Below, in pieces: positions 10,730-55,267 of a stretch of DNA of 64,000 nt (position 1 is the first letter of the stretch; each line of letters starts with the position of its first letter). The stretch covers positions 9,495 to 73,494 of the forward strand of contig JBBQCS010000001.1 of assembly GCA_038318895.1 (NCBI GenBank). Direction: 5' to 3'. Both the position numbers and the translations under genes were made by a program. The DNA comes from Alphaproteobacteria bacterium (GTDB taxonomy: Bacteria; Pseudomonadota; Alphaproteobacteria; UBA11222). Under the pieces are notes generated by a model. It made no database searches, had not been told where the DNA came from, and saw only the letters and a list, made by a program, of their open reading frames with translations.

Positions 10730-10732
10730 CCG

Positions 10733-12094: not shown

Positions 12095-12244
12095 GGTGCG
12101 TCTTTCCTGGATGTGTTGTTGGCGGCACTCTACACTGGCAGAACGGTCAGTGCTACCATACGCATTCCTCATCGTTCCCCCGTGAACACCCTACTGAGAG
12201 GTTGCATCTAGGAACGCTCCGCCCAAATATGATATGGCGTCTTC

Positions 12245-13159: not shown

Positions 13160-13192
13160 GTAAAATAAAGTAATTATGTGCTATAAAGGGCC

Positions 13193-39521: not shown

Positions 39522-40678
39522 GTCGCCAGCCAGGAGCGAATGGGTGCGCGGCGCAGTTTGCAGGCGACCGCCTGGGCAATCTGCACGAAATGGACGCCAA
39601 TACAGGCCAGCGTCCATACCGCGACAATAATCATGCCGATGTCCGGCCGGCCCAGCGTTGCGCCCGCCATGAGGATAACAAGATTGGGGTTGCGCCGCGC
39701 GTTTATTAGGCGAAAGCGGCTGTCAAAGGGCCGCCAGACATGCAGGGTGACGCCGAAAAACAGCTTGAAGGCGCCCTCTTGCAGGCGCTGAAATACATAG
39801 CCGCCGATCACGATGGCGGCAATGATTTCGCCCTGCCACAGGCTGCCCCCTGCACTGCTGATGCCAACAATCCACGCCCAATACCAGAATGGAGGATGAA
39901 CCAGATCAATGCCATGATCGAATATGTTGCCGAAGGCGCTGGAATTGACCGTCACCCGCGCCAGTTTGCCGTCCACCGTATCCAGAAATGTCATGCCCCA
40001 GGCCGCCACCAGGCCCCACCCGAACAGGCCGCCAGCGAACAGGAAATACGCCATTACCGTCAGAACGGCGCTGGCGGATGTTACCATATTGGGCGTAATG
40101 CCGGTTGCGGCGCAGGCGCGTGTGACATGATAGGCGGGCCACGGCCAGACATATTTTGTCACGATATCGGTAACGCCTTTATAGACGGCCCCAAAAAGAT
40201 GGCGTTCTATCTGGCCCTTTGTCGCAGCGGTTATGGGCATGACAAAGGCGGAAATGCGCTTTTTCACCTCATGGCTATAGTCCTCGGCCTCCGCCAGGGA
40301 CAGCGGCGTTGCGATGACGCCTTCGGGCAGGCCAGATGGAGCAAGCGGTAGATTTTGCTGTATCAGTTCAGCTATTGTCGGCGCGCTGTCGGCGGTGACA
40401 TGTGCCGCCACCACCTGACCAGAGGCGGGATCAAGCAGGTATTTCCCCGGGCTTGCAATGAGTTTGCGCAACAAATTCTCTTCGATGAGAAAACCTGCAT
40501 GGATCAGAACAACGAATGGCGCCCGTGCGGCCGAATCGGGCCAGGGGGCAATATCGGCTATGCCAAAGCTGTGCAGCGTCCGGGCAAGGCGGGTCGCCCC
40601 GTCCAGCCCCCAGACAGGTACGGGAGAATTGCCGATCAAACGGATCGCAGGATTTTGCACAGGGTCCGGGGCACGCAT
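39518..40678 (-). CDS. CDP-alcohol phosphatidyltransferase-family enzyme with a roughly 160-aa N-terminal soluble domain
   Basis: Complete CAP motif D-x2-D-G-x2-A-R-x8-G-x3-D-x3-D (LDTVDGKLARVTVNSSAFGNIFDHGID); about 6 TM helices in the C-terminal part. The N-domain has a weak NTP-transferase-like G-rich start (GNSPVPVWGLDGATRL). Confidence 0.75.
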   Translation of the reverse strand: MRAPDPVQNPAIRLIGNSPVPVWGLDGATRLARTLHSFGIADIAPWPDSAARAPFVVLIHAGFLIEENLLRKLIASPGKYLLDPASGQVVAAHVTADSAPTIAELIQQNLPLAPSGLPEGVIATPLSLAEAEDYSHEVKKRISAFVMPITAATKGQIERHLFGAVYKGVTDIVTKYVWPWPAYHVTRACAATGITPNMVTSASAVLTVMAYFLFAGGLFGWGLVAAWGMTFLDTVDGKLARVTVNSSAFGNIFDHGIDLVHPPFWYWAWIVGISSAGGSLWQGEIIAAIVIGGYVFQRLQEGAFKLFFGVTLHVWRPFDSRFRLINARRNPNLVILMAGATLGRPDIGMIIVAVWTLACIGVHFVQIAQAVACKLRRAPIRSWLAT

Positions 40679-40791: not shown

Positions 40792-41601
40792 TTGACTATG
40801 GATATGAACTCTGACGAGAGGGTGGTTGCGTCTGACGCATCGTTGATTCGAAGCCCAACCTGTCCGGCCTGCGATGCGGCGGAGCGCAGACCGTATTACC
40901 GGCATGAGACGTGGGAGCTTTTTTCCTGCGAAGTGTGCCGGTTGATTTATCTTGATCCGATGCCGGGGCCAGCCACGCTGGCGACGATCTATCATGATGC
41001 GTATAACGGCGCGCAAACCGGCTACTTCACCAAAACCAGCTCGAAACTGCGCCGCAGTTCGAAGCGGCTGCGAATTATCCGGCGTTTTTCAAAAACCAGC
41101 GGCGGCAATTTTCTGGATGTCGGCTGTAATGGCGGGTTTATGGTAGAGGCCGCGCGCCGCGTCGGCTATACGGCCTGGGGAATCGATCCGGATCTTGTGT
41201 CACTGGAGTACGCGCGCGCACATTTTCCAGACAGTCGCTACTTCCACGGGGTGATTGACGAATTTGATCCCAGGGATAGCGTTGGCGCGGCTGTGCGGTT
41301 TGATATGGCCTATTGCTCCGAGGTGATTGAGCATGTGCCGCAGCCACAGGCTTTTCTGCGTGATATAAATCGGCTGCTGAAGCCAGGCGGCGTACTGTAC
41401 CTGACGACGCCGGATATTTCCCATTGGCGGCGGCCGCGCCGGCTGGAGAACTGGGATGGGTTCTGCCCGCCATCCCACTTGTTGTATTTTAGTCCGGAAA
41501 ATCTGATTGCTCTTGCGCGGCGCAGTGGCTTTGAACTGCTAAGCCGCCGTCCCGCATGGAAGCCGGGTGTTAAACTGGTGTTGCAACGGCCTCAACGCTA
41601 A
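40792..41601 (+). CDS. Class I SAM-dependent methyltransferase with an N-terminal CxxC..CxxC zinc ribbon
   Basis: CPACDAAERR..CEVCRL is followed by motif I (FLDVGCNGG) and motif post-I (AWGIDPD). Confidence 0.7.
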   Translation: MTMDMNSDERVVASDASLIRSPTCPACDAAERRPYYRHETWELFSCEVCRLIYLDPMPGPATLATIYHDAYNGAQTGYFTKTSSKLRRSSKRLRIIRRFSKTSGGNFLDVGCNGGFMVEAARRVGYTAWGIDPDLVSLEYARAHFPDSRYFHGVIDEFDPRDSVGAAVRFDMAYCSEVIEHVPQPQAFLRDINRLLKPGGVLYLTTPDISHWRRPRRLENWDGFCPPSHLLYFSPENLIALARRSGFELLSRRPAWKPGVKLVLQRPQR

Positions 41602-42424
41602 ACGCTTCTGCACATGTAAGCCAGCATGCCCCGCCGCCCGGCCGGCAATGCGGCGCTATGGCGCGCAATAGTTGAGACAAAAACTCCCACCCGTCTGCGT
41701 CCTGAACGAGATGATGGGTCAATAGACCGGTTGGCTCTTGCGGATCAAAGCCCCGCGGCAGAGGTTTCCCCAATACGAGTGTTCCTTTTGGTATTTGCGG
41801 GTGCAGGCGGCGTATGCGCAGCAGCGTGGTCAATTCCTCCAGCACTGTGTCGGCAGGGCGCAGGCACCGCCCGGTATGCCAGTCAATTGCGTCTATGTGG
41901 CTGTTGGTTTGTACCAGGCCAGGGACTGGCGTCCGATTTGGCGCCGGACGAAACGCCGACACACCATGATAGCCGATCCGCGGCAAATGAACGGCAAGAT
42001 CTTCATCCAGCCGATTCCATGGTGGCACAAATACGGGAAACAGCTTGCTGCCAAACATGTCCCGCAATAGCGACAGTCCCTCAGTGACTTCCGCGCGCAT
42101 TACCGCATTGTCCCGATGCGCGCCAAACTCAGCCCGCTTCCCGGTCCGCGGAGCATGGTTGATATGGGCATACCCATGCACAATAGGGGTGATGTTGTGG
42201 GCCTGTCCTATCATCTCCGGCAACGATGCCTCGGCCCGGCGCGGGACGACGGCCAGCGCCAGCGGCGCGGCAAACTTTTCGGTCAGTTCCAGCAATTGCG
42301 TCAGCGCTGCACTTCCGGTGGCCGCATCATCATCGCGCCACCACAGGCTGGCCGTGCGCCCCGCCTGCGCCCATGCACATAATTCCGCATCCAGTGCCTT
42401 CCAGGCATTTGCACTCTCAGGCAT
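41570..42424 (-). CDS. Polysaccharide deacetylase (CE4)-like protein, divergent
   Basis: WWRDDDA (TFDDG-like), HGYAH (HxxxH) and FVPPWNRL (RxPxG-like) blocks. The start overlaps the upstream GT stop by 8 nt. Confidence 0.45.
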   Translation of the reverse strand: MPESANAWKALDAELCAWAQAGRTASLWWRDDDAATGSAALTQLLELTEKFAAPLALAVVPRRAEASLPEMIGQAHNITPIVHGYAHINHAPRTGKRAEFGAHRDNAVMRAEVTEGLSLLRDMFGSKLFPVFVPPWNRLDEDLAVHLPRIGYHGVSAFRPAPNRTPVPGLVQTNSHIDAIDWHTGRCLRPADTVLEELTTLLRIRRLHPQIPKGTLVLGKPLPRGFDPQEPTGLLTHHLVQDADGWEFLSQLLRAIAPHCRPGGGACWLTCAEAFSVEAVATPV

Positions 42425-43613
42425 TCAGTTTCTCCTGAATGAAACGGGCCGTTACTGCCCCGCCATTCATGTCCGGCAGATACCGGGCGGTATTGTTTTG
42501 CAACATCGCCTGATCAATTGCAGCGGCCAGCGAGGCCGGACCTAAATCCGATTCCGGCACCACCACGGCAAGGCCTGCGCGCGTCAGAGCCTGCGCCCGC
42601 AATGTCTGCTCCCGCTCCCGCGCGGCGCCAAATGGGACAATCACTGCGGGCGTTTCAGAAATAGTCCTAGCCTGCAAAATATCCATTACTGTATTATAGC
42701 CCCCCTGGCTAACCGAACAGGCGCAGTTGAATAGCATTTGCGGAAAATCCGGCCGCGCTGTTTCAACCACTAGGCCTTCCGGCGCTTTGTCCTGCAGCGC
42801 CTGCCGTTGACCATCCGGTGCATTGCGACCGATTAATAACCGCCATAATTTTCCCCTCGCTTGTGTTGAAAGCGCGCGCGCCTGCAGGGCTGCTGTCATT
42901 AATGCTTCACCCACCGCGCCCCCTCCGGCAGATATAATAACTTCATCTTTACCAACAATGCCTGTAGGCGGGTGTTGTGCGTAAGGCGTGTCCGCCGTCA
43001 CATAGCCTGTATAGACTATTTTGCCGTTCAGTTCGGCTGCCGCCGGATAGCTTTCTTCCAGGCGAATGAAATTCGCGTCCCCGTGCACCAGTATATGATC
43101 AAAATAATTCCGTGCGTGGGTGATGGCTTCGTCTGTCCGCCCGGGCTTGTCAGAAGGAACCAGAATGTCACGCACAGAGCACGCGACGAGCGGCGCGGGT
43201 CTGCGCTTGCGGGCTGCTTCCAGCAACGGCAGTAATTCGAAACGGAACTGTCGCCGCCCGAATGGAAACATTTCGATCAGCAGCATATCGGGCGCCAGAT
43301 TGGCAAATGCCTGTAGCAACACAGTTTGGCGGTGGTGGCGCCAGGCGTCGTCGATGGGTTTGCCTTCCTGATTCAGCAATTTCGAAAACTCGGCGTCGGC
43401 GGTGCGAACCGGGGCAAGCTGGATTATATTCGCGCCATGCGCGTCACTATGGGGATATGGCATACCACCGCTGACAATGGTTACCGCCATCCCCGCATCC
43501 TGCAGGCGCCGGGTCAATCGCAGGGCGCGCTCCAGATGACCAATGCCGAGCAGATGCTGCACATAAAACATAATCTGTTTAGGGACGAATATATCATCCA
43601 TGTTTGCTCTCAA
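42417..43613 (-). CDS. GT-B glycosyltransferase (GT1/GT28-like, COG4671 type)
   Basis: The N-terminal FYVQHLLGIGHLERALRLTRRL matches the GT28/GT1 N-domain G-loop + His pattern. It is a paralogue of the 46604..47863 gene. The start may be at 43601. Confidence 0.55.
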   Translation of the reverse strand: MRANMDDIFVPKQIMFYVQHLLGIGHLERALRLTRRLQDAGMAVTIVSGGMPYPHSDAHGANIIQLAPVRTADAEFSKLLNQEGKPIDDAWRHHRQTVLLQAFANLAPDMLLIEMFPFGRRQFRFELLPLLEAARKRRPAPLVACSVRDILVPSDKPGRTDEAITHARNYFDHILVHGDANFIRLEESYPAAAELNGKIVYTGYVTADTPYAQHPPTGIVGKDEVIISAGGGAVGEALMTAALQARALSTQARGKLWRLLIGRNAPDGQRQALQDKAPEGLVVETARPDFPQMLFNCACSVSQGGYNTVMDILQARTISETPAVIVPFGAAREREQTLRAQALTRAGLAVVVPESDLGPASLAAAIDQAMLQNNTARYLPDMNGGAVTARFIQEKLNA

Positions 43614-44190
43614 ACGCCATATTCAGTGCAACCGGAACAACAGTCCCCCCCGCACTTGCATCGAACAGATGGACGGCGTTCCAGGCCAGTTCAACTGGCG
43701 GATTTCCCAGCATATCCCAGTCATAGGCCAATGCGAGCGCCGCGCGGATGACGCCCTTATGGGTCATCGCCGTAACCGGCCGGCCGGGATTGGCGATGTC
43801 TTTGAACCAGGACTTTAGCCGCGCCCGTACATCGGCGGGGGATTCGCCGCCGGGAGGGCGAAAATGCAAGCCGCGGTCTTCGTTTTCCTGCATTGCGCCT
43901 CCGTAACGCGCGCGCAGATCACTCAGGGTTTCACCTTCCCATTCCCCCCAATGCATTTCTATAAGCCTCGGCTCTATCGCGAACGCACCGGGGCCTAGAA
44001 TACGCGCCGATTCAACCGCGCGGCGAAGCGGACTGACATGCCAATGGCTGTTGCGCAAGGCCGCGGGAACCCCAAGCCCCTGTAGTTCGCGGCGGCCCTC
44101 CTGGCTAAGCGATATATCAGCGTGTCCCTGCATACGGCCATCCCTATTCCATTGGGTCGGGCCATGACGGATGAAAGCGACAAAGGTCAT
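43594..44190 (-). CDS. Histidine phosphatase (phosphoglycerate-mutase family)
   Basis: RHG motif FIRHGPTQWN plus downstream His. The ATG at 44190 is 7 nt after the upstream GT4 stop. Confidence 0.7.
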   Translation of the reverse strand: MTFVAFIRHGPTQWNRDGRMQGHADISLSQEGRRELQGLGVPAALRNSHWHVSPLRRAVESARILGPGAFAIEPRLIEMHWGEWEGETLSDLRARYGGAMQENEDRGLHFRPPGGESPADVRARLKSWFKDIANPGRPVTAMTHKGVIRAALALAYDWDMLGNPPVELAWNAVHLFDASAGGTVVPVALNMAFESKHG

Positions 44191-44197
44191 GGAAAAA

Positions 44198-45358
44198 TCA
44201 CGACCGGCGCCACAGCCGCGCCCAACGGCTGCGCGGGCGGGCCTGTTGGCGAAGTCTGACGGCAACCAGTCCTGCGTTCAAAATAATTGCAGCCTTTTCC
44301 ATGCTGCGCATACTGTGGACAAACCGTTTTCCGGTTTCGCCCATGGTGTGACGGACCCCGGCGTCGGAGATCAGAAAGTCGATAACCCCCGCAAAGGCCT
44401 CCGCATCACCCTCCGGGGTAAGAAAGCCGGTTTGTCCATCCAGCATTACATCCGGAACGCCGCGCACCCTGCCAGCGACAACCGGCAGGCCGGACGCCTG
44501 CGCTTCCAGCAGCGCCATGCCATAGGCTTCGCCCGCAGCCGGCCATACATATATGTCGGCAGCCGCATATATGCCGGGCATCTCAATCTTCTGGCGCGCG
44601 CCCCTGAACTGAAGCCGATCCTGTCCGAGCGGGGCAAGCGCGGCCTCTACTTCCGCGCGCGCGGGACCATCCCCCACAATGGTCAGGCGCCAATCCTGGT
44701 GTTTCAGGAGTGCCAGACAATCCGCCAGCCTGCGGTAACTTTCCGCTTTATCCCCTGGCCGCATCATACCTACTGCCAGCAACCGGAGCGGCTCTTCGGG
44801 AAGCGGATCATTGCGCGGCTCCGCGGCATAAGGTCTGGGGTCGAGAAAGGGCGGCAGGTCACGATGAATTTGCACCGGATCAAGAACTGCTTCCAGACCC
44901 TCCGCATCAATGCTGGTCATGGAAAAAATCAGATCAGCAGTTTTGATCGCCAGTTCGGAGCCCCTGTGTCCTATGGCCCATGGGCCTTCTGCCCGGCTTG
45001 CGGCATAAGAGGCTTCCGCCACCACATAGGGAATGCCCAGCGCCCTGGCCACAGCGGGCCCGATCCAGTCGGGCGACTTGTAATAGACGTGATAGCTGAA
45101 CCATAATTCCGGCTGCTGATCTTTCGCGCGCGCGCGATAGCGTTCAATAAGCCGCGCGGCCTCGCGTTCCGCGCCTTTTAAGAGAGTTTCCTGCTGCGCA
45201 GGGTCACCTATGCCATCATAGGCCCGGAACGACGAAGCGACTTCCACTTCATGGCCACCCATGCCCAGCGCGGTGATGAGCAGCCCCGCCATTTCCCTGT
45301 CGCCCGAAGGGGTCAGATCGTCGGGCGCTTTCATCGGTGCATAAAATGCTATGCGCAT
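44198..45358 (-). CDS. Glycosyltransferase family 4 (GT-B, retaining)
   Basis: E-x7-E motif (EAYGMALLEAQASGLPVV) and Glycos_transf_1 C-domain. Confidence 0.8.
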   Translation of the reverse strand: MRIAFYAPMKAPDDLTPSGDREMAGLLITALGMGGHEVEVASSFRAYDGIGDPAQQETLLKGAEREAARLIERYRARAKDQQPELWFSYHVYYKSPDWIGPAVARALGIPYVVAEASYAASRAEGPWAIGHRGSELAIKTADLIFSMTSIDAEGLEAVLDPVQIHRDLPPFLDPRPYAAEPRNDPLPEEPLRLLAVGMMRPGDKAESYRRLADCLALLKHQDWRLTIVGDGPARAEVEAALAPLGQDRLQFRGARQKIEMPGIYAAADIYVWPAAGEAYGMALLEAQASGLPVVAGRVRGVPDVMLDGQTGFLTPEGDAEAFAGVIDFLISDAGVRHTMGETGKRFVHSMRSMEKAAIILNAGLVAVRLRQQARPRSRWARLWRRS

Positions 45359-46611
45359 ACGGGCTCACCATTGCTGGCGGTAAAACGCCTTACTAACTCA
45401 TCAATTGTATGTTGCATCTGAAAGCGGGTTTCCAGCCGTATCCGGCCCTGTCTGCCCATTTGCGCGCGGCGTTCCGGATCCCGGATCAGTTGTTCCAGCG
45501 CAATGGCCAACGCCTGCGCGTCATCTGGCGGACATAACAGTCCCGTCTCGCCGTCGATGATAAATTCAGGAATAGCCGACAGGTTACTGCTGACACAGGC
45601 CAGGCCCTGACTTTGCGCCTCCAGCAGGACGTTAGGGATGCCGTCGCGATCGCCGTCCGGACCGACCCGGCAGGCAAGCGCGAACAGATCGCTCTCGCGC
45701 AGGGCGCTGATGACCGCATCCTGATCAACGGGGCCACCCCAGATGATGGACGCGCCAAGCCCAAGATTTTGCGCCTGCTGTTTCAGTGCCGTCAGCTCCG
45801 GCCCGCCGCCAAGATGCTGAAACCGCCAATGCAGTTCTCGGGGCAACAGCGCCAGGGCCTGCAATAAAGTGTCGAAGCCTTTTTTCACGACCGCCCGCCC
45901 GACACTGATCAGTCGTACTGCAGATTCCGGTGTACTGCCGTCGCGGCTGAAATGCGCAGCAGGTGGGGGGGGAAAGCGCGCGAGGTCAAGCCCGTGGTAT
46001 ACCAGTTCGACGTTAGCTGTTCGTTGCGGTGTGCGCAGTTCATTGAGATAGCCGGTCCCTGCGGCTGTACAACTGACGCCCCAGGCGCAACTGCCAAGTT
46101 TTTCACGCAATTCCCAGGCCGGCGTCGTCCAGATATCCTTTGCATGGGCTGAAAAGCTCCAGGGAAGTCCGCGCATTATCGCCGCGTAGCGGGTGACCGA
46201 TCCCGGTGTATGCAGAAAATGCGCATGCAGATGGCGGACTTTCCCGTCCAGTTCACTGGCCAGCACCAGCGCCTGGGCAAAACGGCGGCCGCGATTGGGT
46301 GTCAGATCGCGGCGCAGATCGCGCAGCCAGATCCGCAGCGCCCGGGAATAGCCCGGCAGCCGCCGCGCCGCAAACCAGCCGCGCAGCACCCGCAACGGAT
46401 CATCGCGCAGATATTCCGGCAGGTAATTTACCGGTGCGGTAATATCCCCGTGCATGGAATGGGACCTGGTGTCGGTTGGGTGGCGTAACGAAAAAATCAC
46501 AATTGGCACGCCACGTTGTTCGAGCGCCAGAATTTCCTGGGCAATAAAGGTTTCTGAAAGTCTGGGATACCCCTTCAGCACAAATGCAATCGTGGGGCCG
46601 GCGCTAGGCAT
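45349..46611 (-). CDS. Glycosyltransferase family 4 (WcaL-like)
   Basis: GT4 C-domain (GIPNVLLEAQSQGLACVSS, EFIIDGETGLL); overlaps both neighbours by 8-10 nt. Confidence 0.8.
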   Translation of the reverse strand: MPSAGPTIAFVLKGYPRLSETFIAQEILALEQRGVPIVIFSLRHPTDTRSHSMHGDITAPVNYLPEYLRDDPLRVLRGWFAARRLPGYSRALRIWLRDLRRDLTPNRGRRFAQALVLASELDGKVRHLHAHFLHTPGSVTRYAAIMRGLPWSFSAHAKDIWTTPAWELREKLGSCAWGVSCTAAGTGYLNELRTPQRTANVELVYHGLDLARFPPPPAAHFSRDGSTPESAVRLISVGRAVVKKGFDTLLQALALLPRELHWRFQHLGGGPELTALKQQAQNLGLGASIIWGGPVDQDAVISALRESDLFALACRVGPDGDRDGIPNVLLEAQSQGLACVSSNLSAIPEFIIDGETGLLCPPDDAQALAIALEQLIRDPERRAQMGRQGRIRLETRFQMQHTIDELVRRFTASNGEPVCA

Positions 46612-47863
46612 GGCGGCGTTTATCCGTTGAATGACGCCGAGTGCGTCTGGTTTCCGGTTTAAGCGAAGACGCCGCGATATCCGCCATCCTTGAGAGACCG
46701 TCGTTGATCCCTGTAATGGCGGTCCGAGAGGGTGGCGCCTGATTGGGCAAGGCCAGAAGCGCCGTCAGCATCACCTCGGGGTCTCGCACGCCGGTGCCGT
46801 TATGCGAAGGATCTGCCAGCATGGCAACCAAACCGCGATCGCTTGCGCGCCGGGCGCGGATGGTTTGTTCCAGACGTGGCGCCGAACGCGGCACAATCAG
46901 CGCTGGCTTGTCACGCGCCAAAATCTCGCAAAAAGTATTGTAGCCCCCCATCGCCACAATGGCTGTCGCGCCGGCCTCAAACTGTTCAATATGGCTATCG
47001 AATGTGAGTATTGTGATTGCCGGTAAAAGCACCGCGCGCGCGGTGAAGGCGGCCTGCGCATCCGGGTTCATAAATGGTCCAAGCACGATCAGCGCAGGCA
47101 GGGGCGCGGGGCCCGCGCGCAATGCGCTAAGCTCATACGCCGATAGCACCCAGTCTATCAGTTCTTCGCCATCACCGCCGCCGCCGGTTGTCACTAATAG
47201 ATAAGGGTTTCTGGTGACCTCCGGCCATACCATGGCGGCAGGCGCGGACGGTAGGGGTGTGCACAGGTACCCGGTATAGGTAATCTTGTCGGCCACCATA
47301 GCTGGAATGGAAACGCCGTCCAGGGGGGCATAGATATCCTGCATACCGTATACCCAAATCTCGTCATAAAGATCTCGCAGGGCGGGGAAGGCTTTTTTGC
47401 GTTGCCATTCCGCCGACAGCCTTGCTGGTTCATCCAGAATATCGCGCAGACCAAGCACCAGCTTTGTGCCGCGCGCCTTGAGCATTTCCAGGGTGGACGC
47501 CACCTCTCCGCGTAATCCCAGCGGTTCTTTGTCGACAATAAATAAATCCGGCGCGAAAATATCTGCTGTGTGCTGGATGATCGACTGGCGAAGCGCCAGT
47601 GTTTCAGAAATATCAAGGTGCAGGTTAAGTGACGTATATTCGCCATTGCGCAATTTGATCACACCGGGCACCCGGATAAAATCCACCCTGGCCCGGAAAT
47701 CGAAACTGCCGATAATCGGCGAGCCGGAAAGGATTAACACCGAAAGTTTGGAGTAGTTCTCAACCAGCGCATGGGCAATAGCCCTGCAACGGCGCAAATG
47801 CCCGAGGCCAAATGTGTCGTGACTGTAGATTAAAACCCGTGATCCGGATTTTCGTGCCGGCAT
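46604..47863 (-). CDS. GT-B glycosyltransferase (GT1/GT28-like, COG4671 type), first gene of the operon
   Basis: N-terminal RVLIYSHDTFGLGHLRRCRAIAHAL and C-terminal GGYNT block; paralogous to 42417..43613. Confidence 0.55.
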   Translation of the reverse strand: MPARKSGSRVLIYSHDTFGLGHLRRCRAIAHALVENYSKLSVLILSGSPIIGSFDFRARVDFIRVPGVIKLRNGEYTSLNLHLDISETLALRQSIIQHTADIFAPDLFIVDKEPLGLRGEVASTLEMLKARGTKLVLGLRDILDEPARLSAEWQRKKAFPALRDLYDEIWVYGMQDIYAPLDGVSIPAMVADKITYTGYLCTPLPSAPAAMVWPEVTRNPYLLVTTGGGGDGEELIDWVLSAYELSALRAGPAPLPALIVLGPFMNPDAQAAFTARAVLLPAITILTFDSHIEQFEAGATAIVAMGGYNTFCEILARDKPALIVPRSAPRLEQTIRARRASDRGLVAMLADPSHNGTGVRDPEVMLTALLALPNQAPPSRTAITGINDGLSRMADIAASSLKPETRRTRRHSTDKRRHA

Positions 47864-47988: not shown

Positions 47989-50793
47989 ATGAATGTGACA
48001 GAGCAGCTTAAATCATTCTACTATGATAAAATTATCCTTTTGCTAAAGAGTTCCCATCACGCAATGGATCCCAGTATTTTCAAATATATCTGGCGCTATA
48101 GTCGGCAAAGCCAGCTAGTTGTTCTGGCGTTGGTGTTGGGATCATTGCCATTTTATTTCCTGATGCTTGATCTGCCGCGCGCCATTGTCAACGGCCCGAT
48201 CCAGGGCAAGGGCTTCGAAACCTCTGATGCGACTGCGACTTTCCTGAGCTTTTCATTTGCTATGCCCGGTTTCCTGCAATCGCTTTTCGGAACAGCAAAA
48301 TCGACCATTTTTGAGGGGTTTGAACTTGCTCGCGAGCCTTATCTTCTGGCGCTGAGCTGTTCTTTGTTGCTGCTGGTCGCTGTCAACGGGATATTCAAAC
48401 TTCAGATCAATACCCTGAAGGGGCGTATGGGCGAACGCGTGCTGCGGCGTTTGCGCTATCAATTGTTTGACCGGATATTACGGTTCCCGACTGCCCATGT
48501 GCGCAAGGTACGCCAGGCCGAAGTGGCGTCGATGATCAAGGACGAGGTCGAACCGCTGGGTGGATTTATCGGTGATGCGTTTGTGCAACCGGCATTTCTG
48601 GGTGGCCAGGCGATCACGGCCCTGCTGTTCATCATGATCCAGAGTTTCTGGTTGGGGCTTGTGGCGGGTGCTGTCGTCCTGGCGCAGGCCTTTATCATTC
48701 CCAAGCTGCGCCGCCGTATTCTGGAGCTTGGCCGTCAGCGGCAACTGGTGGCGCGCCATCTTGCCGGGCGTGTTGGCGAGGTCGTCGAGGGGGCGCTGGA
48801 AATTCATGCGCACGACACCTCGCATTATGAACGGGCCGAAATCACCGGCCGTCTGGGACAGATTTTCCGGCTGCGCTTTGAAATTTACCGCCGCAAGTTT
48901 CAGGTCAAGTTTCTCAATAATACGCTGGCCCAGGTTACGCCATTCATCTTTTATTCTGTGGGCGGATATTTTGCGATCCGGGGCAGAATGGATATCGGCC
49001 AGCTTGTTGCGGCGCTGGTTGCCTACAAGGAGCTTCCAAGTCCGGTCAAGGAGCTTATCGACTGGGATCAGCAGCGTCTTGATGTGCAGATCAAATATGA
49101 AAGTATTATCACTCAATTCAACCCTGACGGCATGATCGCGCCGGAACTACAGGACCCGGACGCCGATGACGATGCGCCGCTAACGGGAATGTTGAACGCT
49201 TCACGCATCACGCTTGAAGATGACGCCGGGGTAAAATTGCTGGATGGCGTGTCATTTACATTTGACGTCCGGTCCCATGTGGCGATTACAGGGCCGGTAG
49301 GCGGCGGACAGGATTATCTGGGGCTTGTTCTGGCGCGGCTGATATTCCCCAATAGCGGAAAACTAAGCATTGGCGGGCGTGACACGGCGTTATTGCCAGA
49401 GGCGGTAACAGGACGGCGTATTTCCTATGCGGGCAGTGATTCAATCCTGTTCCCACGTAGCGTACGCGAAAACATGTTGTACGGGCTAATGCATCGCCCG
49501 CTGACGCCGCCGGTAATTATTGAGGAGGATCCACGCCAAGAGGCCATGGAACGTAGTGAAATCCGGCGTTCGGGAAACTCCCGGTTTGATCTGCGCGCCG
49601 ACTGGATTGATTATGCCGCCGCCGGAGCGCAAGGCCCCTATGATATCGATAACCAGATTGCGGCTGCGCTGGATGCTGTCATGATGGAAGAGGATGTCTA
49701 TCAACTTGGTTTGCGCGGCTGCATCAATCCGGAAGATCACCCGTCACTGGCCGAGAACATATTGCAGGCGCGGAAAGCGCTGCTCGAAATGCTCCGGGAT
49801 CCAGAATATGCGGCGCTGGTGGCGCCATTCGATCCCGAACGCTATAACCATAACGCGACATTAAGTGAAAACCTGCTGTTTGGAACTGCTGTTGGCACGG
49901 CCTTTTCTACGGTCAACCTGATTGGAAATACCTATTTTCAGTGGGTGCTGGAGGAATCTGGCCTCACACCTGAATTGCTTCGAATGGGTTTCGCCATTGC
50001 TGAAACCATGGTCGAGCTTTTTGCGGACATTGCGCCGGGGCATCCGTTTTTCGATCAGTTCAGCTTTATCGCTTCCGACGATTTGCCGGACTATCAGGAG
50101 ATCGTGCATCGCGCGGGAAGGATTGCGCTCGAGCAACTTCCAGAGTCAGATCAGCGGCGTCTGGCCGCCCTGACGCTGGATTATGTCGAGGCCCGTCACC
50201 GTCTTGGGCTGATTGACGCCGCTCTGGAGCAGAGGGTGCTGACAGCGCGCCGTCTTTTTGCATCGCGCCTGCCGGCCACCTATCGCGGGGCGATAGAAGT
50301 TTATGACCCTGAAAAATACAATTCAGCCGCGACCCTGCTCGATAATATTCTGTTTGGGCGTGTGGTCTATGGACTGGCGGAAGCGCAATCGCGTATCGGA
50401 GTGTTGATCGGCGAAGTGGTGGGGCAGTTAAATCTGCGCTGGGAAATATTCAAAATAGGCTTGAACTTTAACGTGGGAGGACGCGGACGGTTCCTGAGCA
50501 CCATCCAACGCCAGAAACTCGCGCTCGCCAAGGCAATCCTGAAGCGTCCCGATCTGCTTGTGGTGAATGACGCAATTTCGCTGCTGGACGTGCGAAGTCA
50601 GCAGCAGATCCTGCACAACATCAAAACTTATTGCGATGGGCGGGGAGTTATCTGGATCGGTGGACAACCGAACCTGGGCCGGAATTTTGACCAGGTTTTG
50701 GTGATCGAGGACGGAAAAATTGCCGAGCAGGGCGAATTCGAGCAACTGTCACTGAATGGCAAGTATCTGCCGCAACTGCTCGCCGTTGGGTAA
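47989..50793 (+). CDS. ABC-exporter-like protein: type I TMD fused to a degenerate, insertion-containing nucleotide-binding domain
   Basis: Six N-terminal TM helices with an ABC-exporter-like layout. The NBD motifs are all present but altered: Walker A GPVGGGQDYL (no Lys/Ser), signature LSTIQRQK (for LSGGQ), Walker B LLVVNDA (for hhhhDE), H-loop IGGQP. About 330 aa are inserted between the Q-loop region and the signature. An alternative start is at 48064. Confidence 0.6.
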   Translation: MNVTEQLKSFYYDKIILLLKSSHHAMDPSIFKYIWRYSRQSQLVVLALVLGSLPFYFLMLDLPRAIVNGPIQGKGFETSDATATFLSFSFAMPGFLQSLFGTAKSTIFEGFELAREPYLLALSCSLLLLVAVNGIFKLQINTLKGRMGERVLRRLRYQLFDRILRFPTAHVRKVRQAEVASMIKDEVEPLGGFIGDAFVQPAFLGGQAITALLFIMIQSFWLGLVAGAVVLAQAFIIPKLRRRILELGRQRQLVARHLAGRVGEVVEGALEIHAHDTSHYERAEITGRLGQIFRLRFEIYRRKFQVKFLNNTLAQVTPFIFYSVGGYFAIRGRMDIGQLVAALVAYKELPSPVKELIDWDQQRLDVQIKYESIITQFNPDGMIAPELQDPDADDDAPLTGMLNASRITLEDDAGVKLLDGVSFTFDVRSHVAITGPVGGGQDYLGLVLARLIFPNSGKLSIGGRDTALLPEAVTGRRISYAGSDSILFPRSVRENMLYGLMHRPLTPPVIIEEDPRQEAMERSEIRRSGNSRFDLRADWIDYAAAGAQGPYDIDNQIAAALDAVMMEEDVYQLGLRGCINPEDHPSLAENILQARKALLEMLRDPEYAALVAPFDPERYNHNATLSENLLFGTAVGTAFSTVNLIGNTYFQWVLEESGLTPELLRMGFAIAETMVELFADIAPGHPFFDQFSFIASDDLPDYQEIVHRAGRIALEQLPESDQRRLAALTLDYVEARHRLGLIDAALEQRVLTARRLFASRLPATYRGAIEVYDPEKYNSAATLLDNILFGRVVYGLAEAQSRIGVLIGEVVGQLNLRWEIFKIGLNFNVGGRGRFLSTIQRQKLALAKAILKRPDLLVVNDAISLLDVRSQQQILHNIKTYCDGRGVIWIGGQPNLGRNFDQVLVIEDGKIAEQGEFEQLSLNGKYLPQLLAVG

Positions 50794-50826: not shown

Positions 50827-51294
50827 ATGCCGCTAAATGACGAAGTGGAACTGTTGCGGAAAGTGTTGCTGTTTTCCGGTATCGAACCCGCAAAGCTGAA
50901 ACTGCTTGCCTTTACCAGCGAGCGCGTGAATTTCGCCAAAGGCCAAAACCTGATGCGGCAGGGAGAGATGGGTAATGCGGCCTATTTGATATTGAGCGGC
51001 GAGGCGGATGTTCTGGCCGATGCAGGTGGCGGCCCGGTTAAGGTGGCAAGCGTGGGCCGAAACGACTTTGTTGGTGAGATGGCTATCTTGCGCGATCAGC
51101 CGCGCACCGCTACTGTCGTCGCCGCGACAGAAGTCTCTACCCTGAAGATCACGAAAGAAAGCTTCTTGCAGCTTATCCAGGATAGTCCGAAAATCGCTAT
51201 AGAACTGACGCGGATTCTCGCACAGCGGCTTGAAACGACAACAATCGATCTGACCAGCGCCAGGGAAAAACTGCGCGCTGCCGGAATCGAATGA
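50827..51294 (+). CDS. Stand-alone cyclic-nucleotide-binding (CAP-effector) domain protein
   Basis: 155 aa with the cNMP-binding beta-roll (GEMGNAAYLILSGEADV ... GEMAIL..RTATV) and no DNA-binding HTH. Confidence 0.75.
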   Translation: MPLNDEVELLRKVLLFSGIEPAKLKLLAFTSERVNFAKGQNLMRQGEMGNAAYLILSGEADVLADAGGGPVKVASVGRNDFVGEMAILRDQPRTATVVAATEVSTLKITKESFLQLIQDSPKIAIELTRILAQRLETTTIDLTSAREKLRAAGIE

Positions 51295-51782
51295 AATTAA
51301 TGCAGGGGAAAACCAACGTGACAAATATGATCGATCCGGCGACATTGCCGCCCAATATTCAGGCGATTTTGCGCAAGCCTTCCCCCGCCAGCCAGTATCT
51401 TGGCCTGGAGTTTCTGGAATGCGATCCGCAAAAAGGCCATGTCAAAGTGGCGTATCAGGCCAGCGATCAATTGTGCAATTTATGGGGTGGTATTCATGGC
51501 GGCATGGTTGCCGCAATCATGGATGATGTGCTTGCTCTGACCTTCGGCCTGACCATTGCCTGGGGACAGATCACCCCGACACTGGAATTGAAAACCACCT
51601 TTCTGCAGGCGGCCCGTCCCGGGCGGCTGCTGGCCGAGGGGGTTATACTGCGCCGCGGCAAGTCAATCAGTTTCGCCGAAGCGGAACTGCGCTCGGCAGA
51701 CGGAGAACTGCTTGCCAAGGCAAGCGCGACCGCAAGTATTGTTACTTTGAAGCCCAAAGACGGTTCAAAGGCCAAGGATTAA
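51291..51782 (+). CDS. PaaI-family hotdog thioesterase
   Basis: HGG motif (GGIHGGMVAAIMDDVLA); the ATG overlaps the upstream TGA (ATGA). Confidence 0.75.
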   Translation: MKLMQGKTNVTNMIDPATLPPNIQAILRKPSPASQYLGLEFLECDPQKGHVKVAYQASDQLCNLWGGIHGGMVAAIMDDVLALTFGLTIAWGQITPTLELKTTFLQAARPGRLLAEGVILRRGKSISFAEAELRSADGELLAKASATASIVTLKPKDGSKAKD

Positions 51783-51838: not shown

Positions 51839-52708
51839 TTATCCCTGGCTGGAAAGCCAGTCGCGCAGGATTTCGTTGACCCTTTCCGGCGCTTCCTGCT
51901 GCACCCAGTGGGAAACCCCCGGCAAATAGTGGATGGTGAAATCTTCGACCAGTTCTTCCGTACCGAAAGTCAACTCCTTGCCCAGCGCGGTGTCTTCGTC
52001 GCCCCAGATCATCAGGGTCGGGGTGGATAGCTTACCCGGCACCCGCGCCTCCTTTGGTTTCGCGCCGCGCAAAGCGGCTCGGTAATAATTGATCATCGCA
52101 GTCAGCGCGCCGGGTTGTGACGCGTTGCGCTGAAACACCTCCAGCACCTCGGGGGGAAAGCGCGATTTGTCCACCGCCATAGTGCTGAATGCCTCCCCAA
52201 CACCGCGTGCGCCATTGCGCCCCAGGCCCCATTCGGGCAACCAGGGAATCTGAAAGAAAAACACGTACCAGGAGCGTTTCAGTTGCGCCCAGTGCCGCAC
52301 CCCCTGGGCGAACAATTTGGGATGGGGAATATTCATCACCACCAGCTTCTTCAGTGGCCGGATGTTACGCAGCGCAAACTCCCAGGCGATCACGCCGCCC
52401 CAATCATGCGCGATCAGCACAACCTCTTCCGCCCCGGAAGCGTCGATCAGTCCGGCGACATCGGCCAGCAGATGCGGCATGGCGTAATTCGCGACCCCGG
52501 CTGGCCGGGAGGTATTGCCGTAACCGCGCATATTTGGCGCCCAGACCAGATAGCCCATCTCCGCCAGCATCCGCAATTGATGCCGCCAGGAATAGGAATG
52601 CTCGGGAAATCCGTGCAGACACAGCGCCAGCTTCTTTCCGCTGCCGCACATATCCACTTCAAAGTGCAGGCCGTTGGCCTCGACAATTTCAGTCCTTGGA
52701 GCTTCCAT
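51839..52708 (-). CDS. Alpha/beta hydrolase (epoxide hydrolase / haloalkane dehalogenase-like)
   Basis: LHGFPE (HGxP) oxyanion motif and IAHDWGG nucleophile elbow. Confidence 0.8.
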   Translation of the reverse strand: MEAPRTEIVEANGLHFEVDMCGSGKKLALCLHGFPEHSYSWRHQLRMLAEMGYLVWAPNMRGYGNTSRPAGVANYAMPHLLADVAGLIDASGAEEVVLIAHDWGGVIAWEFALRNIRPLKKLVVMNIPHPKLFAQGVRHWAQLKRSWYVFFFQIPWLPEWGLGRNGARGVGEAFSTMAVDKSRFPPEVLEVFQRNASQPGALTAMINYYRAALRGAKPKEARVPGKLSTPTLMIWGDEDTALGKELTFGTEELVEDFTIHYLPGVSHWVQQEAPERVNEILRDWLSSQG

Positions 52709-52792: not shown

Positions 52793-55267
52793 ATGAACCA
52801 GGAAAATGGAAAGTCCGAAAAACGGGTGGGGATGTTACGCGCGCCCGAATTGCGGCGTGCATGTGAAAGTGGTTGCCTTGGCTTCGTCAGCACGGACGAA
52901 CTATCCGATCCCGCCCATGTATTCGGGCAGGACCGCGCGATCAACGCCATAGAGTTTGGCGCCGATATTGCGCGCGAGGGCTATAATCTGTTCGTGTTAG
53001 GCGAACCGGGCAGTGGCAAACGCAGCCTGGTGCGCCAGTTACTGGAACAGCGCGCAGCGGCCGAGCCGCCCCCCAGTGACTGGGTCTATGTATATAATTT
53101 TGCGAAACCCCATCAGCCAAACGCCATTGAACTGCCAACGGGTCAGGGGGTGCGCTTTCGCGATGCGCTGGCGCATATGGTTGAGGAACTGCGCACCGCA
53201 ATCCCGGCAATTTTCGACAGCGAGGAATACCGTGTTCGCCGCCATGCGATTGATGAAAAAATTCAGGAGCGTCAGCAGGCAGCCTTTGAGGTTCTGGAAA
53301 AGCGCGCCAGCGAGAAATCCATTCGCGCGGTCCGCACCCCTGCCGGGATTACCCTGGTGCCGCTGCGCGACGGCGAGCTGATAAAGCCGGAAGCCTTCGA
53401 GGCATTGCCGGAAGCCGAGCGCAAACAGATCGAAGCAGACATTCAGGAACTGCAACGCCAGATGCTGCAGACCTTTGAACAGATGCCGCGTCTTGAAAAG
53501 GAGCGGCGCAAAAGCTTGCGCGAACTCAACCACGAATTCGCCAATTACGCCGTGCGGGAAATCATCGACGAAGAACGCGCCGCTTTTTCCGAAATCGCCG
53601 AAGTGCGGGATTATCTTGATCTGGTGCAGGCGGATATCATCAACAATATACAGATGTTCACGCAATCGCAGGAAATGCAGGAAGCCTCGGAACTGCCGGG
53701 CGGCGGTCAGCAAGAGGGTGGCGACGGCATGGCGCAGGCCCTGCTGGGCAATCCGTTTCACCGCTACGAGGCGAACCTTATCGTCGATAATTCCAGAACC
53801 AGAGGCGCCCCGGTGGTGGAGGAAGGCAAACCCACGGTGCAGCAACTGGTGGGGCGCGTGGAACATATCGCGCAGATGGGCGCCCTTGTTACCAATTTCA
53901 TGCTGATCAAACCGGGCGCGCTGCACCGGGCCAACGGGGGATATCTGCTGATCGACTCGCGCGCCTTGCTGATGCAGCCGTTCGCGTGGGAAACGCTGAA
54001 GCGCGCATTATGGAACCGTGAGACGCGCATTGAATCCCCCGCCGACATGCTTTCCATGGTCAGCACGATCTCGCTGGAACCTGAACCCATTCCGTTGCGC
54101 ACCAAAGTGGTGCTGTTCGGCGAAGCGATGACTTATTACCTGCTGTCTGCGCATGACCCGGAATTCCAGGGCCTGTTCAAGACCGTTGCGGAAATGGAAA
54201 CCACCGTTGACTGGACGCCGGAATCCGAGCAGGCGTTTGCCTGTCAACTGGCGGCCATTTGCCGCGCGGGTTCTGTCCGCCATCTGGATCCGTCGGGGGT
54301 TGGGCGGATGGTCGAACAGGCGGCGCGTCACGCGTCGGATGCGGAAAAGCTTTCCATTCATATCGGTCATGTCGCCGATCTGCTGCGCGAGGCCGATTAT
54401 TGGGCGAACAAGGCGGGCGCCGAATTGATTTCCGCCGCGCATGTGCAAAAAGCGGTGGATATGCGTGAAGAGCGGATCGGACGCATTCGTGAGAAAAGCC
54501 AGGAATCCATTACCCGCGATATTGTGCTGATAGATACCGATGGCGCGCGTATCGGTCAGATCAATGGCCTTAGCGTGTTGTCCATAGGCGATTTGAGTTT
54601 CGGCCGGCCCACACGCATTTCAGCACGCATCGGCATTGGCGCCGGTCGGGTGCTGGACATCGAACGCGAAGTGGAACTGGGTGGGCCCCTGCATTCAAAA
54701 GGCGTGTTGATCCTGTCCGGCTTTCTGCGTGAACGCTTTGGCGTGGCCAGCCCGCTGGCGCTTACCGCAAGTCTGGTGTTCGAGCAATCCTATGGCGGCG
54801 TGGATGGCGACAGCGCCTCGTCGGCCGAGCTGTACTGCCTGCTGTCCGCTATTGCCGAGGTTCCCATTCAGCAAAGTTTTGCCGTTACCGGTTCAGTCAA
54901 TCAGCATGGCGAGGTGCAGGCGATCGGTGGTGTGAATGAAAAAATCGAAGGCTTTTTCGATATTTGCGTGGCGCGCGGCCTGACCGGCCGTCAGGGGGTT
55001 CTGATACCCAGCGCCAATGTCAAACATCTGATGTTGCGCCAGGATGTGGTGGATGCGGTCGGCGGCGGGCGTTTTCATATCCATGCAATCGATACAATCG
55101 ATCACGGCATTGAAGTCCTGACCGGCGTCACGGCTGGCGAACGCCAGAGCGATGGAGGCTATCCCGAAGGCTCCATCAACGCCCGCGTGGCGGCGCGTCT
55201 GGCTAACTTTTCCAGGGCACGCAAATCGGCGGACGGCCGCGCTTCTGACACCGGGGAACGTATATGA
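52793..55267 (+). CDS. Lon-like ATP-dependent protease (LonB/COG1067 type: AAA+ domain plus S16 peptidase domain)
   Basis: Walker A GEPGSGKRSL; C-terminal Lon proteolytic domain with the Ser (DGDSASSAE) and Lys (NEKIEG) dyad. 824 aa. Confidence 0.8.
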   Translation: MNQENGKSEKRVGMLRAPELRRACESGCLGFVSTDELSDPAHVFGQDRAINAIEFGADIAREGYNLFVLGEPGSGKRSLVRQLLEQRAAAEPPPSDWVYVYNFAKPHQPNAIELPTGQGVRFRDALAHMVEELRTAIPAIFDSEEYRVRRHAIDEKIQERQQAAFEVLEKRASEKSIRAVRTPAGITLVPLRDGELIKPEAFEALPEAERKQIEADIQELQRQMLQTFEQMPRLEKERRKSLRELNHEFANYAVREIIDEERAAFSEIAEVRDYLDLVQADIINNIQMFTQSQEMQEASELPGGGQQEGGDGMAQALLGNPFHRYEANLIVDNSRTRGAPVVEEGKPTVQQLVGRVEHIAQMGALVTNFMLIKPGALHRANGGYLLIDSRALLMQPFAWETLKRALWNRETRIESPADMLSMVSTISLEPEPIPLRTKVVLFGEAMTYYLLSAHDPEFQGLFKTVAEMETTVDWTPESEQAFACQLAAICRAGSVRHLDPSGVGRMVEQAARHASDAEKLSIHIGHVADLLREADYWANKAGAELISAAHVQKAVDMREERIGRIREKSQESITRDIVLIDTDGARIGQINGLSVLSIGDLSFGRPTRISARIGIGAGRVLDIEREVELGGPLHSKGVLILSGFLRERFGVASPLALTASLVFEQSYGGVDGDSASSAELYCLLSAIAEVPIQQSFAVTGSVNQHGEVQAIGGVNEKIEGFFDICVARGLTGRQGVLIPSANVKHLMLRQDVVDAVGGGRFHIHAIDTIDHGIEVLTGVTAGERQSDGGYPEGSINARVAARLANFSRARKSADGRASDTGERI

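Follow-up and report, generated by a model that had tools for sequence, protein, structure and literature searches.

A conserved ABC-exporter-like protein with a degenerate, enlarged nucleotide-binding domain and its cyclic-nucleotide-binding partner in Alphaproteobacteria and Betaproteobacteria

We analysed a 64-kb stretch of DNA (hereafter the window) from an alphaproteobacterial lineage (assembly GCA_038318895.1, contig JBBQCS010000001.1, positions 9,495 to 73,494), in which an open reading frame (ORF) encodes a protein resembling an ATP-binding cassette (ABC) exporter. The gene is followed on its own strand by a gene for a small cyclic-nucleotide-binding (CNB) protein and by a thioesterase gene, and a glycosyltransferase operon is transcribed divergently from it, running leftwards from position 47863; in these respects the locus is organised as a preliminary description of the DNA had reported. 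The ABC-like protein and the CNB protein form a conserved two-protein module whose members are nearly always paired or fused. The coordinates of all features are collected in Table 1; the locus counts given there and below refer to 83 related loci, many of them truncated.

Table 1. Features of the ABC-exporter-like gene, its partner gene and the neighbouring operon (positions in the window; aa, amino acid residues)
Feature	Position	Strand	Remarks
ABC-exporter-like gene	47989..50793	+	ORF of 934 aa; probable product 909 aa from Met26 (48064)
Transmembrane domain, six-helix type IV exporter fold	48064..49113	+	aa 26-375; PF00664 and AlphaFold2/Foldseek
N-terminal RecA-like part of pseudo-nucleotide-binding domain	49186..49503	+	aa 400-505; degenerate Walker A and Q-loop; PF00005 positions 1-94
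Degenerate Walker A, GPVGGGQDY	49291..49317	+	aa 435-443; Gln441 for Lys, Asp442 for Ser/Thr
Helical insertion	49501..50232	+	aa 505-748; invariant motifs DWIDY, GHPFF.QFSFI, EARHRLGL among others
Internal repeat, copy A	49756..49992	+	aa 590-668; contains FDPERYNHNATLSENLLFG
Internal repeat, copy B (canonical helical subdomain)	50233..50463	+	aa 749-825; contains YDPEKYNSAATLLDNILFG; runs into signature
Degenerate ABC signature, LSTIQRQK	50494..50517	+	aa 836-843; aligned to LSGGQKQR of ABCB1
Degenerate Walker B, LLVVND (Asn860, Asp861), then conserved D-loop SLLD (Asp867)	50554..50589	+	
H-loop position, WIGGQP	50653..50670	+	Gly892 at His position
CNB partner gene	50827..51294	+	155 aa; single PF00027 domain, E 5.7e-22; cassette GE...RTA intact; no helix-turn-helix
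Hotdog-fold thioesterase	51291..51782	+	PF03061; at this position only in the window's clade (L006, L007, L008, L027)
Glycosyltransferase GT28a, MurG/GT28-C-like	46604..47863	-	divergent; redA, pRL110050; 55/83 loci
Glycosyltransferase GT4b, GT4	45349..46611	-	redB, pRL110049; 52/83 loci
Glycosyltransferase GT4c, second GT4	44198..45358	-	43/83 loci
Histidine-phosphatase superfamily protein	43594..44265	-	PF00300, E 6e-38; 42/83 loci
Glycosyltransferase GT28d, second MurG/GT28-C-like	42417..43613	-	redAh, pRL110048; 50/83 loci
Conserved 284-aa protein unkE	41570..42424	-	no Pfam or NCBIfam match; 46/83 loci

Most homologues of the ABC-like protein are 904-910 aa long and align from Met26 of the window protein onwards, and the sequence AAAGAG lies about 13 nucleotides 5' of this codon; the true start codon is therefore probably that at 48064. 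The window protein is a half-transporter of the type IV ABC-exporter fold. Its transmembrane domain (TMD) was matched by the Pfam family ABC_membrane (PF00664, aa 92-344, E 1.7e-13), and the nucleotide-binding domain (NBD) was recognised in two pieces, aa 418-525 by Pfam and aa 821-931 by NCBIfam models and PDB sequences. The Pfam match (ABC_tran, PF00005) was confined to profile positions 1-94 of 137, and the NCBIfam exporter models and PDB sequences aligned in two separate blocks (approximately aa 104-501 and aa 821-931), the NCBIfam models scoring far under their cut-offs (141.8 bits against a cut-off of 602 for MsbA). An AlphaFold2 model of the whole protein (pLDDT 83) retrieved TmrAB, Atm1 and PCAT1 in Foldseek, with an E-value of 9e-18 and a target-normalised TM-score of 0.63 for TmrAB (5mkk_B). 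ORF call, Pfam and PDB alignments together confirm the earlier view of a 934-aa exporter-like protein. Mean column conservation is highest in the TMD (0.75 vs about 0.6 for the NBD parts), and the coupling-helix region KDEVEPLGGFIGDA is invariant in the family alignment.

The preliminary description had proposed that all catalytic motifs of the NBD are degenerate, and a residue-by-residue alignment with ABCB1 agrees on each of the four motifs named. GPVGGGQDY stands against GSSGSGKST, with the Walker A Lys and Ser/Thr replaced; LSTIQRQK stands against LSGGQKQR; LLVVNDA stands against LLLLDEA, the catalytic Glu being replaced by Asp861; and WIGGQP stands against IIAHRL, with Gly892 instead of the H-loop His. 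Three further changes came to light, namely Asn860 for the Walker B Asp, Ser483 for the Q-loop Gln and the lack of an aromatic residue at the A-loop position, so that 7 of 7 elements of the ATP site are non-canonical. A pattern scan of the whole protein for G....GK[ST] or LS.GQ found neither elsewhere, so no hidden canonical Walker A or signature exists in the protein. The side formed by Walker A, Walker B and H-loop and the side formed by the signature are degenerate in one and the same chain; a homodimer would accordingly hold two dead ATP sites, as had been suggested. Because both halves of the site are affected, the classical heterodimer pattern of one consensus and one degenerate site is, judged by these motifs, ruled out for the window protein.

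The state of the motifs across the close family was determined from the best 120 database homologues (51-100% identity, 890-957 aa), all of which have the same architecture as the window protein. Their Walker A profile reads G-P-x-G-[S/G]-G, followed by Lys (59), Arg (39) or Gln (16) and then by Glu (85) or Asp (29). Hence 98/120 carry Lys or Arg at the Walker Lys position. Where Ser/Thr would be expected, 114 sequences have an acidic residue and 2 have Thr or Ser; the P-loop glycines are kept (G435 in 120/120, G440 in 119/120). The signature profile is L-[ST]-[AS]-[AV]-Q-R-Q-K with invariant QRQK, and Walker B consists of four hydrophobic residues followed by Asn (91) or Ser (20), together 111/120, at position 860 and by Glu (84) or Asp (29) at position 861. 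The D-loop residue Asp867 is found in 119/120 homologues, the Q-loop position is occupied by Gln (50), Ser (26) or Pro (25), and the H-loop position by His (41), Gln (24) or Gly (20). In the window's own clade the Walker Lys is Gln throughout. Among 69 distant full-length representatives the motifs vary widely, from near-canonical (P0233, with GTPGSGKST and ILILDEA) to unrecognisable (P0160, with APGDQEAEL and the glycine-rich loop gone), and about 15 of the 69 lack the glycine-rich loop entirely. A compensatory charge swap, in which the change of the Walker A Ser/Thr to Asp/Glu and that of the Walker B Asp to Asn would together keep Mg-ATP binding, was considered and rejected, as covariation was inconsistent in the distant representatives (GKSE occurs with LNEA, and GKEA with LDDA).

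These counts bear on the idea that ATP or another phosphorylated ligand is bound without hydrolysis, drives dimerisation of the NBDs under modulation by the CNB protein and gates the TMD in a CFTR-like manner. The substitutions at the Ser/Thr and Walker B Asp positions are conserved and not random, the P-loop glycines, the basic residue at the Lys position, Asp867 and the QRQK segment have been retained, and degenerate ABCC sites are capable of stable ATP binding (PMC7756269), all of which argues for such a switch. It fits poorly with the Gln at the Lys position and the A-loop without aromatic residue in the window's clade, with Ala in place of this Lys in the Rhizobium orthologue described below, with the distant members that have no glycine-rich loop and with the change of both Mg2+ ligands. 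We regard non-hydrolytic switching as decidedly unlikely overall; it is more plausible for members containing Lys and Glu than for the Gln/Asp copy in the window.

Decay of a single gene does not account for the degeneracy. The suspicion that an ordinary ABC exporter gene has here become a pseudogene and is decaying could draw on the loss of all motifs and on an apparently frameshifted copy in Sinorhizobium meliloti 1021, but it is refuted by the intact frame of 909 aa, by selection, by distribution and by a fitness phenotype of the Rhizobium orthologue. Compared with three relatives of 76-85% identity, the overall dN/dS ratio was 0.07-0.10 (Nei-Gojobori); regional values for the TMD, both NBD halves and the insert described below were about 0.04-0.19 where dS could be estimated, dS being saturated and the values approximate. 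A pseudo-NBD of about 530 aa has been retained under purifying selection. Relatives were detected in at least 571 species genomes (pattern scan, one genome per species), and orthologues of the same architecture occur in hundreds of species. The matches listed included, among the Alphaproteobacteria, Reyranella, Dongia, Kiloniellaceae, Pelagibius and Hyphomicrobiales and, among the Betaproteobacteria, Burkholderiales and Nitrosomonadales; of these matches, one from an uncultured alphaproteobacterial metagenome-assembled genome is nearest to the window protein (85% identity). Non-canonical motifs are thus a property of the family and, given the strong purifying selection, not of one decaying copy, which settles a question that the preliminary description had left to an orthologue search.

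The second peculiarity of the NBD is its size. About 35 profile positions correspond to some 320 residues in the window protein, which gives a net insertion of about 285 aa; the large insert proposed earlier is real, its size being somewhat below the roughly 330 aa claimed. Profile-profile comparison of alignment slices by hhalign revealed that two segments of this region, copy A and copy B, are homologous (probability 98%, E 1.3e-13), whereas BLASTP self-comparison of the NBD region detected no internal repeat. Since copy B leads straight into the signature and the C-terminal NCBIfam and PDB exporter alignments resume inside it, at aa 767-781, copy B is the canonical helical subdomain and copy A its duplicate; the duplicated element is the leader of the ABC helical subdomain. 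The segment SVRENMLYG after the Q-loop bears a weak likeness to both repeats (17 columns, probability 20-26%, hhalign), too weak for a triplication of the helical element to be claimed. Pfam scans of isolated insert slices and of repeat copy A gave no match, apart from a weak ABC_tran match of the C-terminal slice, and no solved structure homologous to the insert was found; the insert resembles no known domain. A search with the insert alone (aa 500-825) among 1.84 billion cluster representatives yielded 1007 clusters (50% identity) at E<=1e-3 and 701 at the stricter threshold of E<=1e-10. Within full-length matches (820-1206 aa) the matching region lies at about residues 450-800, that is, at the same place, and the insert can for this reason be taken as a signature of the family that does not seem to occur in other contexts. 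The simplest reading is that it arose in an active ancestor, in which catalysis may have become dispensable afterwards.

The CNB gene starts 34 nucleotides 3' of the ABC-like gene, which is followed directly by a homologous CNB gene in 79/83 loci. In longer relatives (1034-1206 aa) the two are one protein: all nine that were tested (9/9) carry a C-terminal cNMP_binding domain. The fusion P0127 is collinear with the window ABC-like protein followed by the window CNB protein, its residues 1-866 corresponding to the former (43% identity) and residues 909-1042 to the latter (33% identity, E 4e-29). In 80 partners the phosphate-binding cassette is nearly invariant (G 80/80, E 73/80, R 80/80, T/S 75/80, A 80/80). 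A C-terminal helix-turn-helix (HTH) domain was not detected by Pfam or NCBIfam in the CNB protein, and the NCBIfam CRP model matched over positions 15-134 of 214 only. Because the cassette is near-invariant and adjacency and fusion recur, it is very probable that the partner is a cAMP- or cGMP-binding protein that acts on the pseudo-NBD by physical contact. The CNB protein, recorded before simply as a downstream neighbour, is an integral partner of the ABC-like protein, which had been overlooked. One fused relative, P0179 (1206 aa), carries a GGDEF domain after the cNMP-binding domain, which would tie the module to cyclic di-GMP signalling. Adenylate or guanylate cyclase genes were also observed no more than a few kb from the module, in Rhizobium (L086) and at loci L079, L059, L048, L029, L077 and L065, and nearby cyclases are a possible source of the cyclic nucleoside monophosphate (cNMP) signal.

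Members of the glycosyltransferase operon recur in 42-55 of the 83 loci, in three arrangements: in Alphaproteobacteria they are transcribed away from the ABC-like gene, in Betaproteobacteria they run in its direction, and in Rhizobium the order is optDABC-redA-redB-redAh-ABC-CNB. The operon glycosyltransferases match soluble-type GT-B domains only. A Methyltransf_17 gene (PF12692, about 162 aa) follows the CNB gene in 49/83 loci (e.g. L001 11199-11687; L003 11219-11710), and the thioesterase gene, which takes this place in the window and its closest relatives, is clade-specific and lies outside the conserved module. A complete Opp/PepT-type importer is encoded in 52/83 loci (e.g. L030 2804-7691; L086 743-6713), with binding protein, permeases and a fused double-NBD ATPase of 630 aa that has two canonical Walker A motifs; in Betaproteobacteria it is placed between the glycosyltransferase genes and the ABC-like gene. 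Within the 64-kb window there was no Opp-type importer, nucleotide cyclase or Methyltransf_17 gene, and the importer is missing from the window's clade. Further genes adjoin the operon in the window: a class I methyltransferase (40792-41601, + strand), which recurs in L008, and nearby a CDP-alcohol phosphatidyltransferase like phosphatidylinositol-phosphate synthase (39518-40678, - strand), a DAGK_cat lipid kinase (38574-39617, - strand) and a 298-aa protein without family match (37681-38577, - strand). These four genes give a hint of a lipid-linked product, but none except the methyltransferase was found in the other loci. The phosphatidyltransferase and lipid kinase genes were considered as evidence for a glycolipid like phosphatidylinositol mannosides; this was rejected, as the two are not conserved elsewhere. 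On the other side, a convergent alpha/beta hydrolase gene (51839-52708, - strand) is followed by a gene for a LonB/LonC-like protein of 824 aa (52793-55267, + strand) with AAA_32, LonC_helical, LonB_AAA-LID and Lon_C domains.

The importer ATPase is relevant to an alternative raised in the preliminary description, namely an obligate partnership with another, competent NBD. In that case a canonical half-transporter or an OptD-like double ATPase encoded elsewhere would make the complex ATP-driven. One-sided degeneracy is indeed common in heterodimeric exporters (PMC7756269), and the canonical double-NBD ATPase belongs to the same cluster wherever the importer is present. This much of the alternative stands; the ATPase, however, has a binding protein and permeases of its own and is not encoded in the window, in which no ORF of at least 150 aa contains a canonical ABC Walker A and signature. 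A second exporter gene was found neither in the window nor, as far as their genes were called or screened, in the related loci that were examined. Moreover, with both site halves degenerate in one chain, even a perfect partner would leave both composite sites non-canonical, and the pseudo-NBD covalently occupies the place where a trans NBD would dock. Such a heteromer is very unlikely.

The neighbourhood likewise invites the view that the protein does not transport at all and serves as a scaffold or sensor, the ABC fold being an anchor from which the cNMP signal is relayed to the glycosyltransferases or to the Opp-type importer. Every catalytic motif has been lost, the large conserved helical platform with its invariant surface-type motifs is unlike known domains and could dock partners, the domains matched in the glycosyltransferases are of soluble type and the importer is co-conserved in most loci. 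The regulatory ABC protein SUR provides a precedent. A mere anchor, however, would not need a TMD that is the most conserved part of the protein, nor an invariant coupling-helix region, and the importer as addressee of the signal is absent from the window's own clade. We consider a pure scaffold or sensor unlikely.

Relatives in rhizobia connect the family to a phenotype. In a tblastn search with the insert, family members turned up on 263 plasmids or chromids, from Rhizobium and Sinorhizobium among other genera. The orthologue in R. leguminosarum 3841, assigned by gene order and description, is RL_RS29995 = pRL110047, annotated as 'permease component of ABC exporter'. Around it lie pRL110046 (CNB, annotated as 'FNR/CRP family'), redAh, redB and redA (pRL110048-50), optC to optD and the adenylate cyclase gene cyaA (pRL110055), which in R. 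johnstonii pRL11 (L086) lies beside the cluster at 1-588. pRL110047 is 46% identical to the window protein, and its site is more degenerate still: Walker A is GPNGSGAEA, with Ala for the Walker Lys, Walker B is FIFNRP, with Arg for the catalytic Glu, and there is no H-loop His. It is hardly plausible that pRL110047 binds ATP.

In insertion sequencing (INSeq) data, in which genes are classed as neutral (NE), defective (DE) or essential (ES), pRL110047 is a nodule-general gene, rated ES for nodule bacteria, DE for bacteroids and NE for both rhizosphere and root (Wheatley et al., bioRxiv 10.1101/2020.05.07.082560). In the same data the GT4 gene pRL110049 is ES/ES in nodules and the CNB gene pRL110046 is ES in nodules (10.1101/2020.05.07.082560). 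pRL110046 was also listed among regulators required for root attachment, with the speculation that it controls pRL110045 (10.1101/2022.11.21.517457). The protein encoded by this gene (L086 13417-13884) is no longer than about 155 aa, and an HTH is absent from its homologue in the window. The annotation as CRP/FNR transcription factor is probably wrong, and our data suggest that pRL110046 is a subunit of pRL110047 instead of a regulator of pRL110045. In S. meliloti 1021 two overlapping ORFs together make up the member, which is situated on pSymB at 843 kb (L088 = pSymB 831125-856102; 10542-13308) and has no annotated coding sequence; this copy is probably frameshifted. It is not msbA2, a candidate that was rejected because msbA2 is situated at about 938 kb on pSymB, some 95 kb away.

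Taken together, the system looks like an uncharacterised form of export that is gated by a signal and not powered by ATP. Our favoured but tentative explanation, to which we assign a probability of roughly 45%, is a cNMP-gated exporter or flippase that moves the product of the glycosyltransferases independently of ATP hydrolysis. The ABC-like half-transporter would form a homodimer in which the NBDs have been turned into non-catalytic pseudo-NBDs, with a helical subdomain enlarged by about 285 residues, partly via internal duplication. The CNB protein, encoded immediately downstream or fused C-terminally in other lineages, would be the second component, and the module would serve the products of the co-conserved GT28/GT4 genes. 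The conserved TMD would keep a translocation path for a glycoside, oligosaccharide or glycolipid. Movement would be thermodynamically downhill or driven by a coupling other than ATP hydrolysis, probably in the outward direction: a product synthesised in the cytoplasm can leave the cell down its gradient, and its export would then need gating and no energy. Binding of cAMP or cGMP to the CNB partner would open the path via the pseudo-NBDs, presumably by activation; the enlarged helical platform may serve as docking site for the CNB protein, and the dimer-interface elements, i.e. the D-loop Asp867 and the QRQK segment after the signature, would transmit its action.

As regards the substrate, an ATP-driven importer alongside would suit a release-and-retrieve cycle of a soluble glycoside. 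GT28-type enzymes, which often use lipid acceptors, would suit a glycolipid flippase equally well. A more specific version of the cNMP-gated export is that cNMP on the CNB protein replaces ATP, closes the pseudo-NBD dimer and opens the path, the glycoside being released or flipped and retrieved by the importer in most lineages, with the duplicated helical subdomain as a new regulatory interface. This joint proposal, with all its parts, is possible but doubtful.

Several observations weigh against cNMP-gated export as outlined here. That the window protein no longer binds ATP is a prediction from its sequence. Of the close family, about half carries the Walker Lys, 84/120 the catalytic Glu and 41/120 the H-loop His, and the P-loop glycines are still conserved, so some members may bind or slowly hydrolyse ATP. 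The hints on the substrate pull apart, since GT28 enzymes suggest a lipid acceptor and the co-conserved importer suggests a soluble product. The apparent frameshift of the copy in S. meliloti 1021 means that some lineages can do without the module. In addition, the two MurG-like genes are neutral in R. leguminosarum INSeq (10.1101/2020.05.07.082560).

The family is widespread and, so far as the searchable literature shows, mechanistically undescribed: searches on ABC exporters with degenerate or pseudo-ATPase sites, on cNMP-binding partners of ABC proteins, on glycosyltransferase clusters with such partners and on redA/redB/opt returned no description of the inactive NBD, of its insert or of the pairing with a CNB protein. 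If it holds jointly that both sites are dead, that a member with Ala for the Walker Lys is nonetheless needed for symbiosis and that a cNMP sensor is hard-wired to the NBD, this large family would demonstrate that hydrolysis is dispensable for the type IV fold, and the module would be a tractable bacterial model for transporters turning into gated channels or regulators. cNMP signalling would be tied to the export of glycans or glycosides in Alpha- and Betaproteobacteria, rhizobia included. pRL110046, annotated as CRP/FNR regulator, would be reinterpreted as a transporter subunit, and the red/opt/pRL110046-47 cluster would offer a genetically accessible system for identification of the substrate.

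ABC exporters are defined by ATP-driven alternating access. The type IV exporters MsbA, BmrA, TmrAB, TM287/288 and Atm1 give the best sequence and structure matches of the window protein, with which they share the folds of TMD and NBD and the domain order; coupling-helix region and D-loop are conserved in the window family too. In the known members one ATP site or more matches the consensus, whereas the window protein has no such site and in addition possesses the insert of about 285 aa and an obligatory CNB companion. An analogy for downhill or ion-coupled translocation is provided by YpfP and LtaA of Staphylococcus aureus, a GT28 enzyme and an ATP-independent flippase for its glycolipid product, although LtaA is a major facilitator superfamily protein without ABC fold and without cNMP control. 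SbmA/BacA have the exporter TMD fold without ATP hydrolysis and transport with another energy source (BacA is mentioned in PMC12912959). These proteins are importers that lost the NBD, in contrast to the window family, which keeps and enlarges it.

Heterodimeric exporters (TM287/288, TmrAB, TAP1/2) are encoded by two half-transporter genes, usually adjacent, whereas no second gene was seen in the window or among the genes called or screened at related loci. In the heterodimers Walker B and H-loop are degenerate on one chain and the signature on the other; in the window protein all changes reside in one chain. Every characterised exporter with a degenerate site retains one consensus site (PMC7756269). 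S. meliloti MsbA2 (SMb21191) is an MsbA-like exporter from a glycosyltransferase operon that is required for symbiosis and has an unknown glycan as its product (PMC3687685, PMC12239276). Its locus is distinct from that of the family member, and the two papers mention neither an insert nor a CNB partner. HetC of Nostoc, of the PCAT type, is a bacterial type IV exporter that is regulated through a domain of cNMP-binding fold, but this N-terminal domain binds ppGpp, a C39 peptidase domain is present and the catalytic ATPase residue is essential (PMC10986499). In the window system the CNB protein is separate or C-terminal, its cassette is canonical for cNMP and the ATPase motifs are dead; Pfam revealed neither a peptidase domain nor an extra N-terminal domain in the window protein.

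With regard to the proposed role, there is a likeness to CFTR and SUR (ABCC7, ABCC8/9), in which an exporter fold is used for gating or regulation; no homology to the window protein was found beyond the ABC fold. The NBDs of CFTR and SUR are ligand-operated switches, and cAMP controls CFTR through protein kinase A. These proteins are eukaryotic and full-length and have kept one hydrolytic site, whereas the window family is without a canonical site. They are regulated through a phosphorylated R domain or an associated Kir channel, whereas the window family is paired with a cNMP-binding protein. If a second-messenger-gated conduit of the kind outlined above exists, the module would represent a bacterial counterpart to the evolution of CFTR and SUR from transporters.

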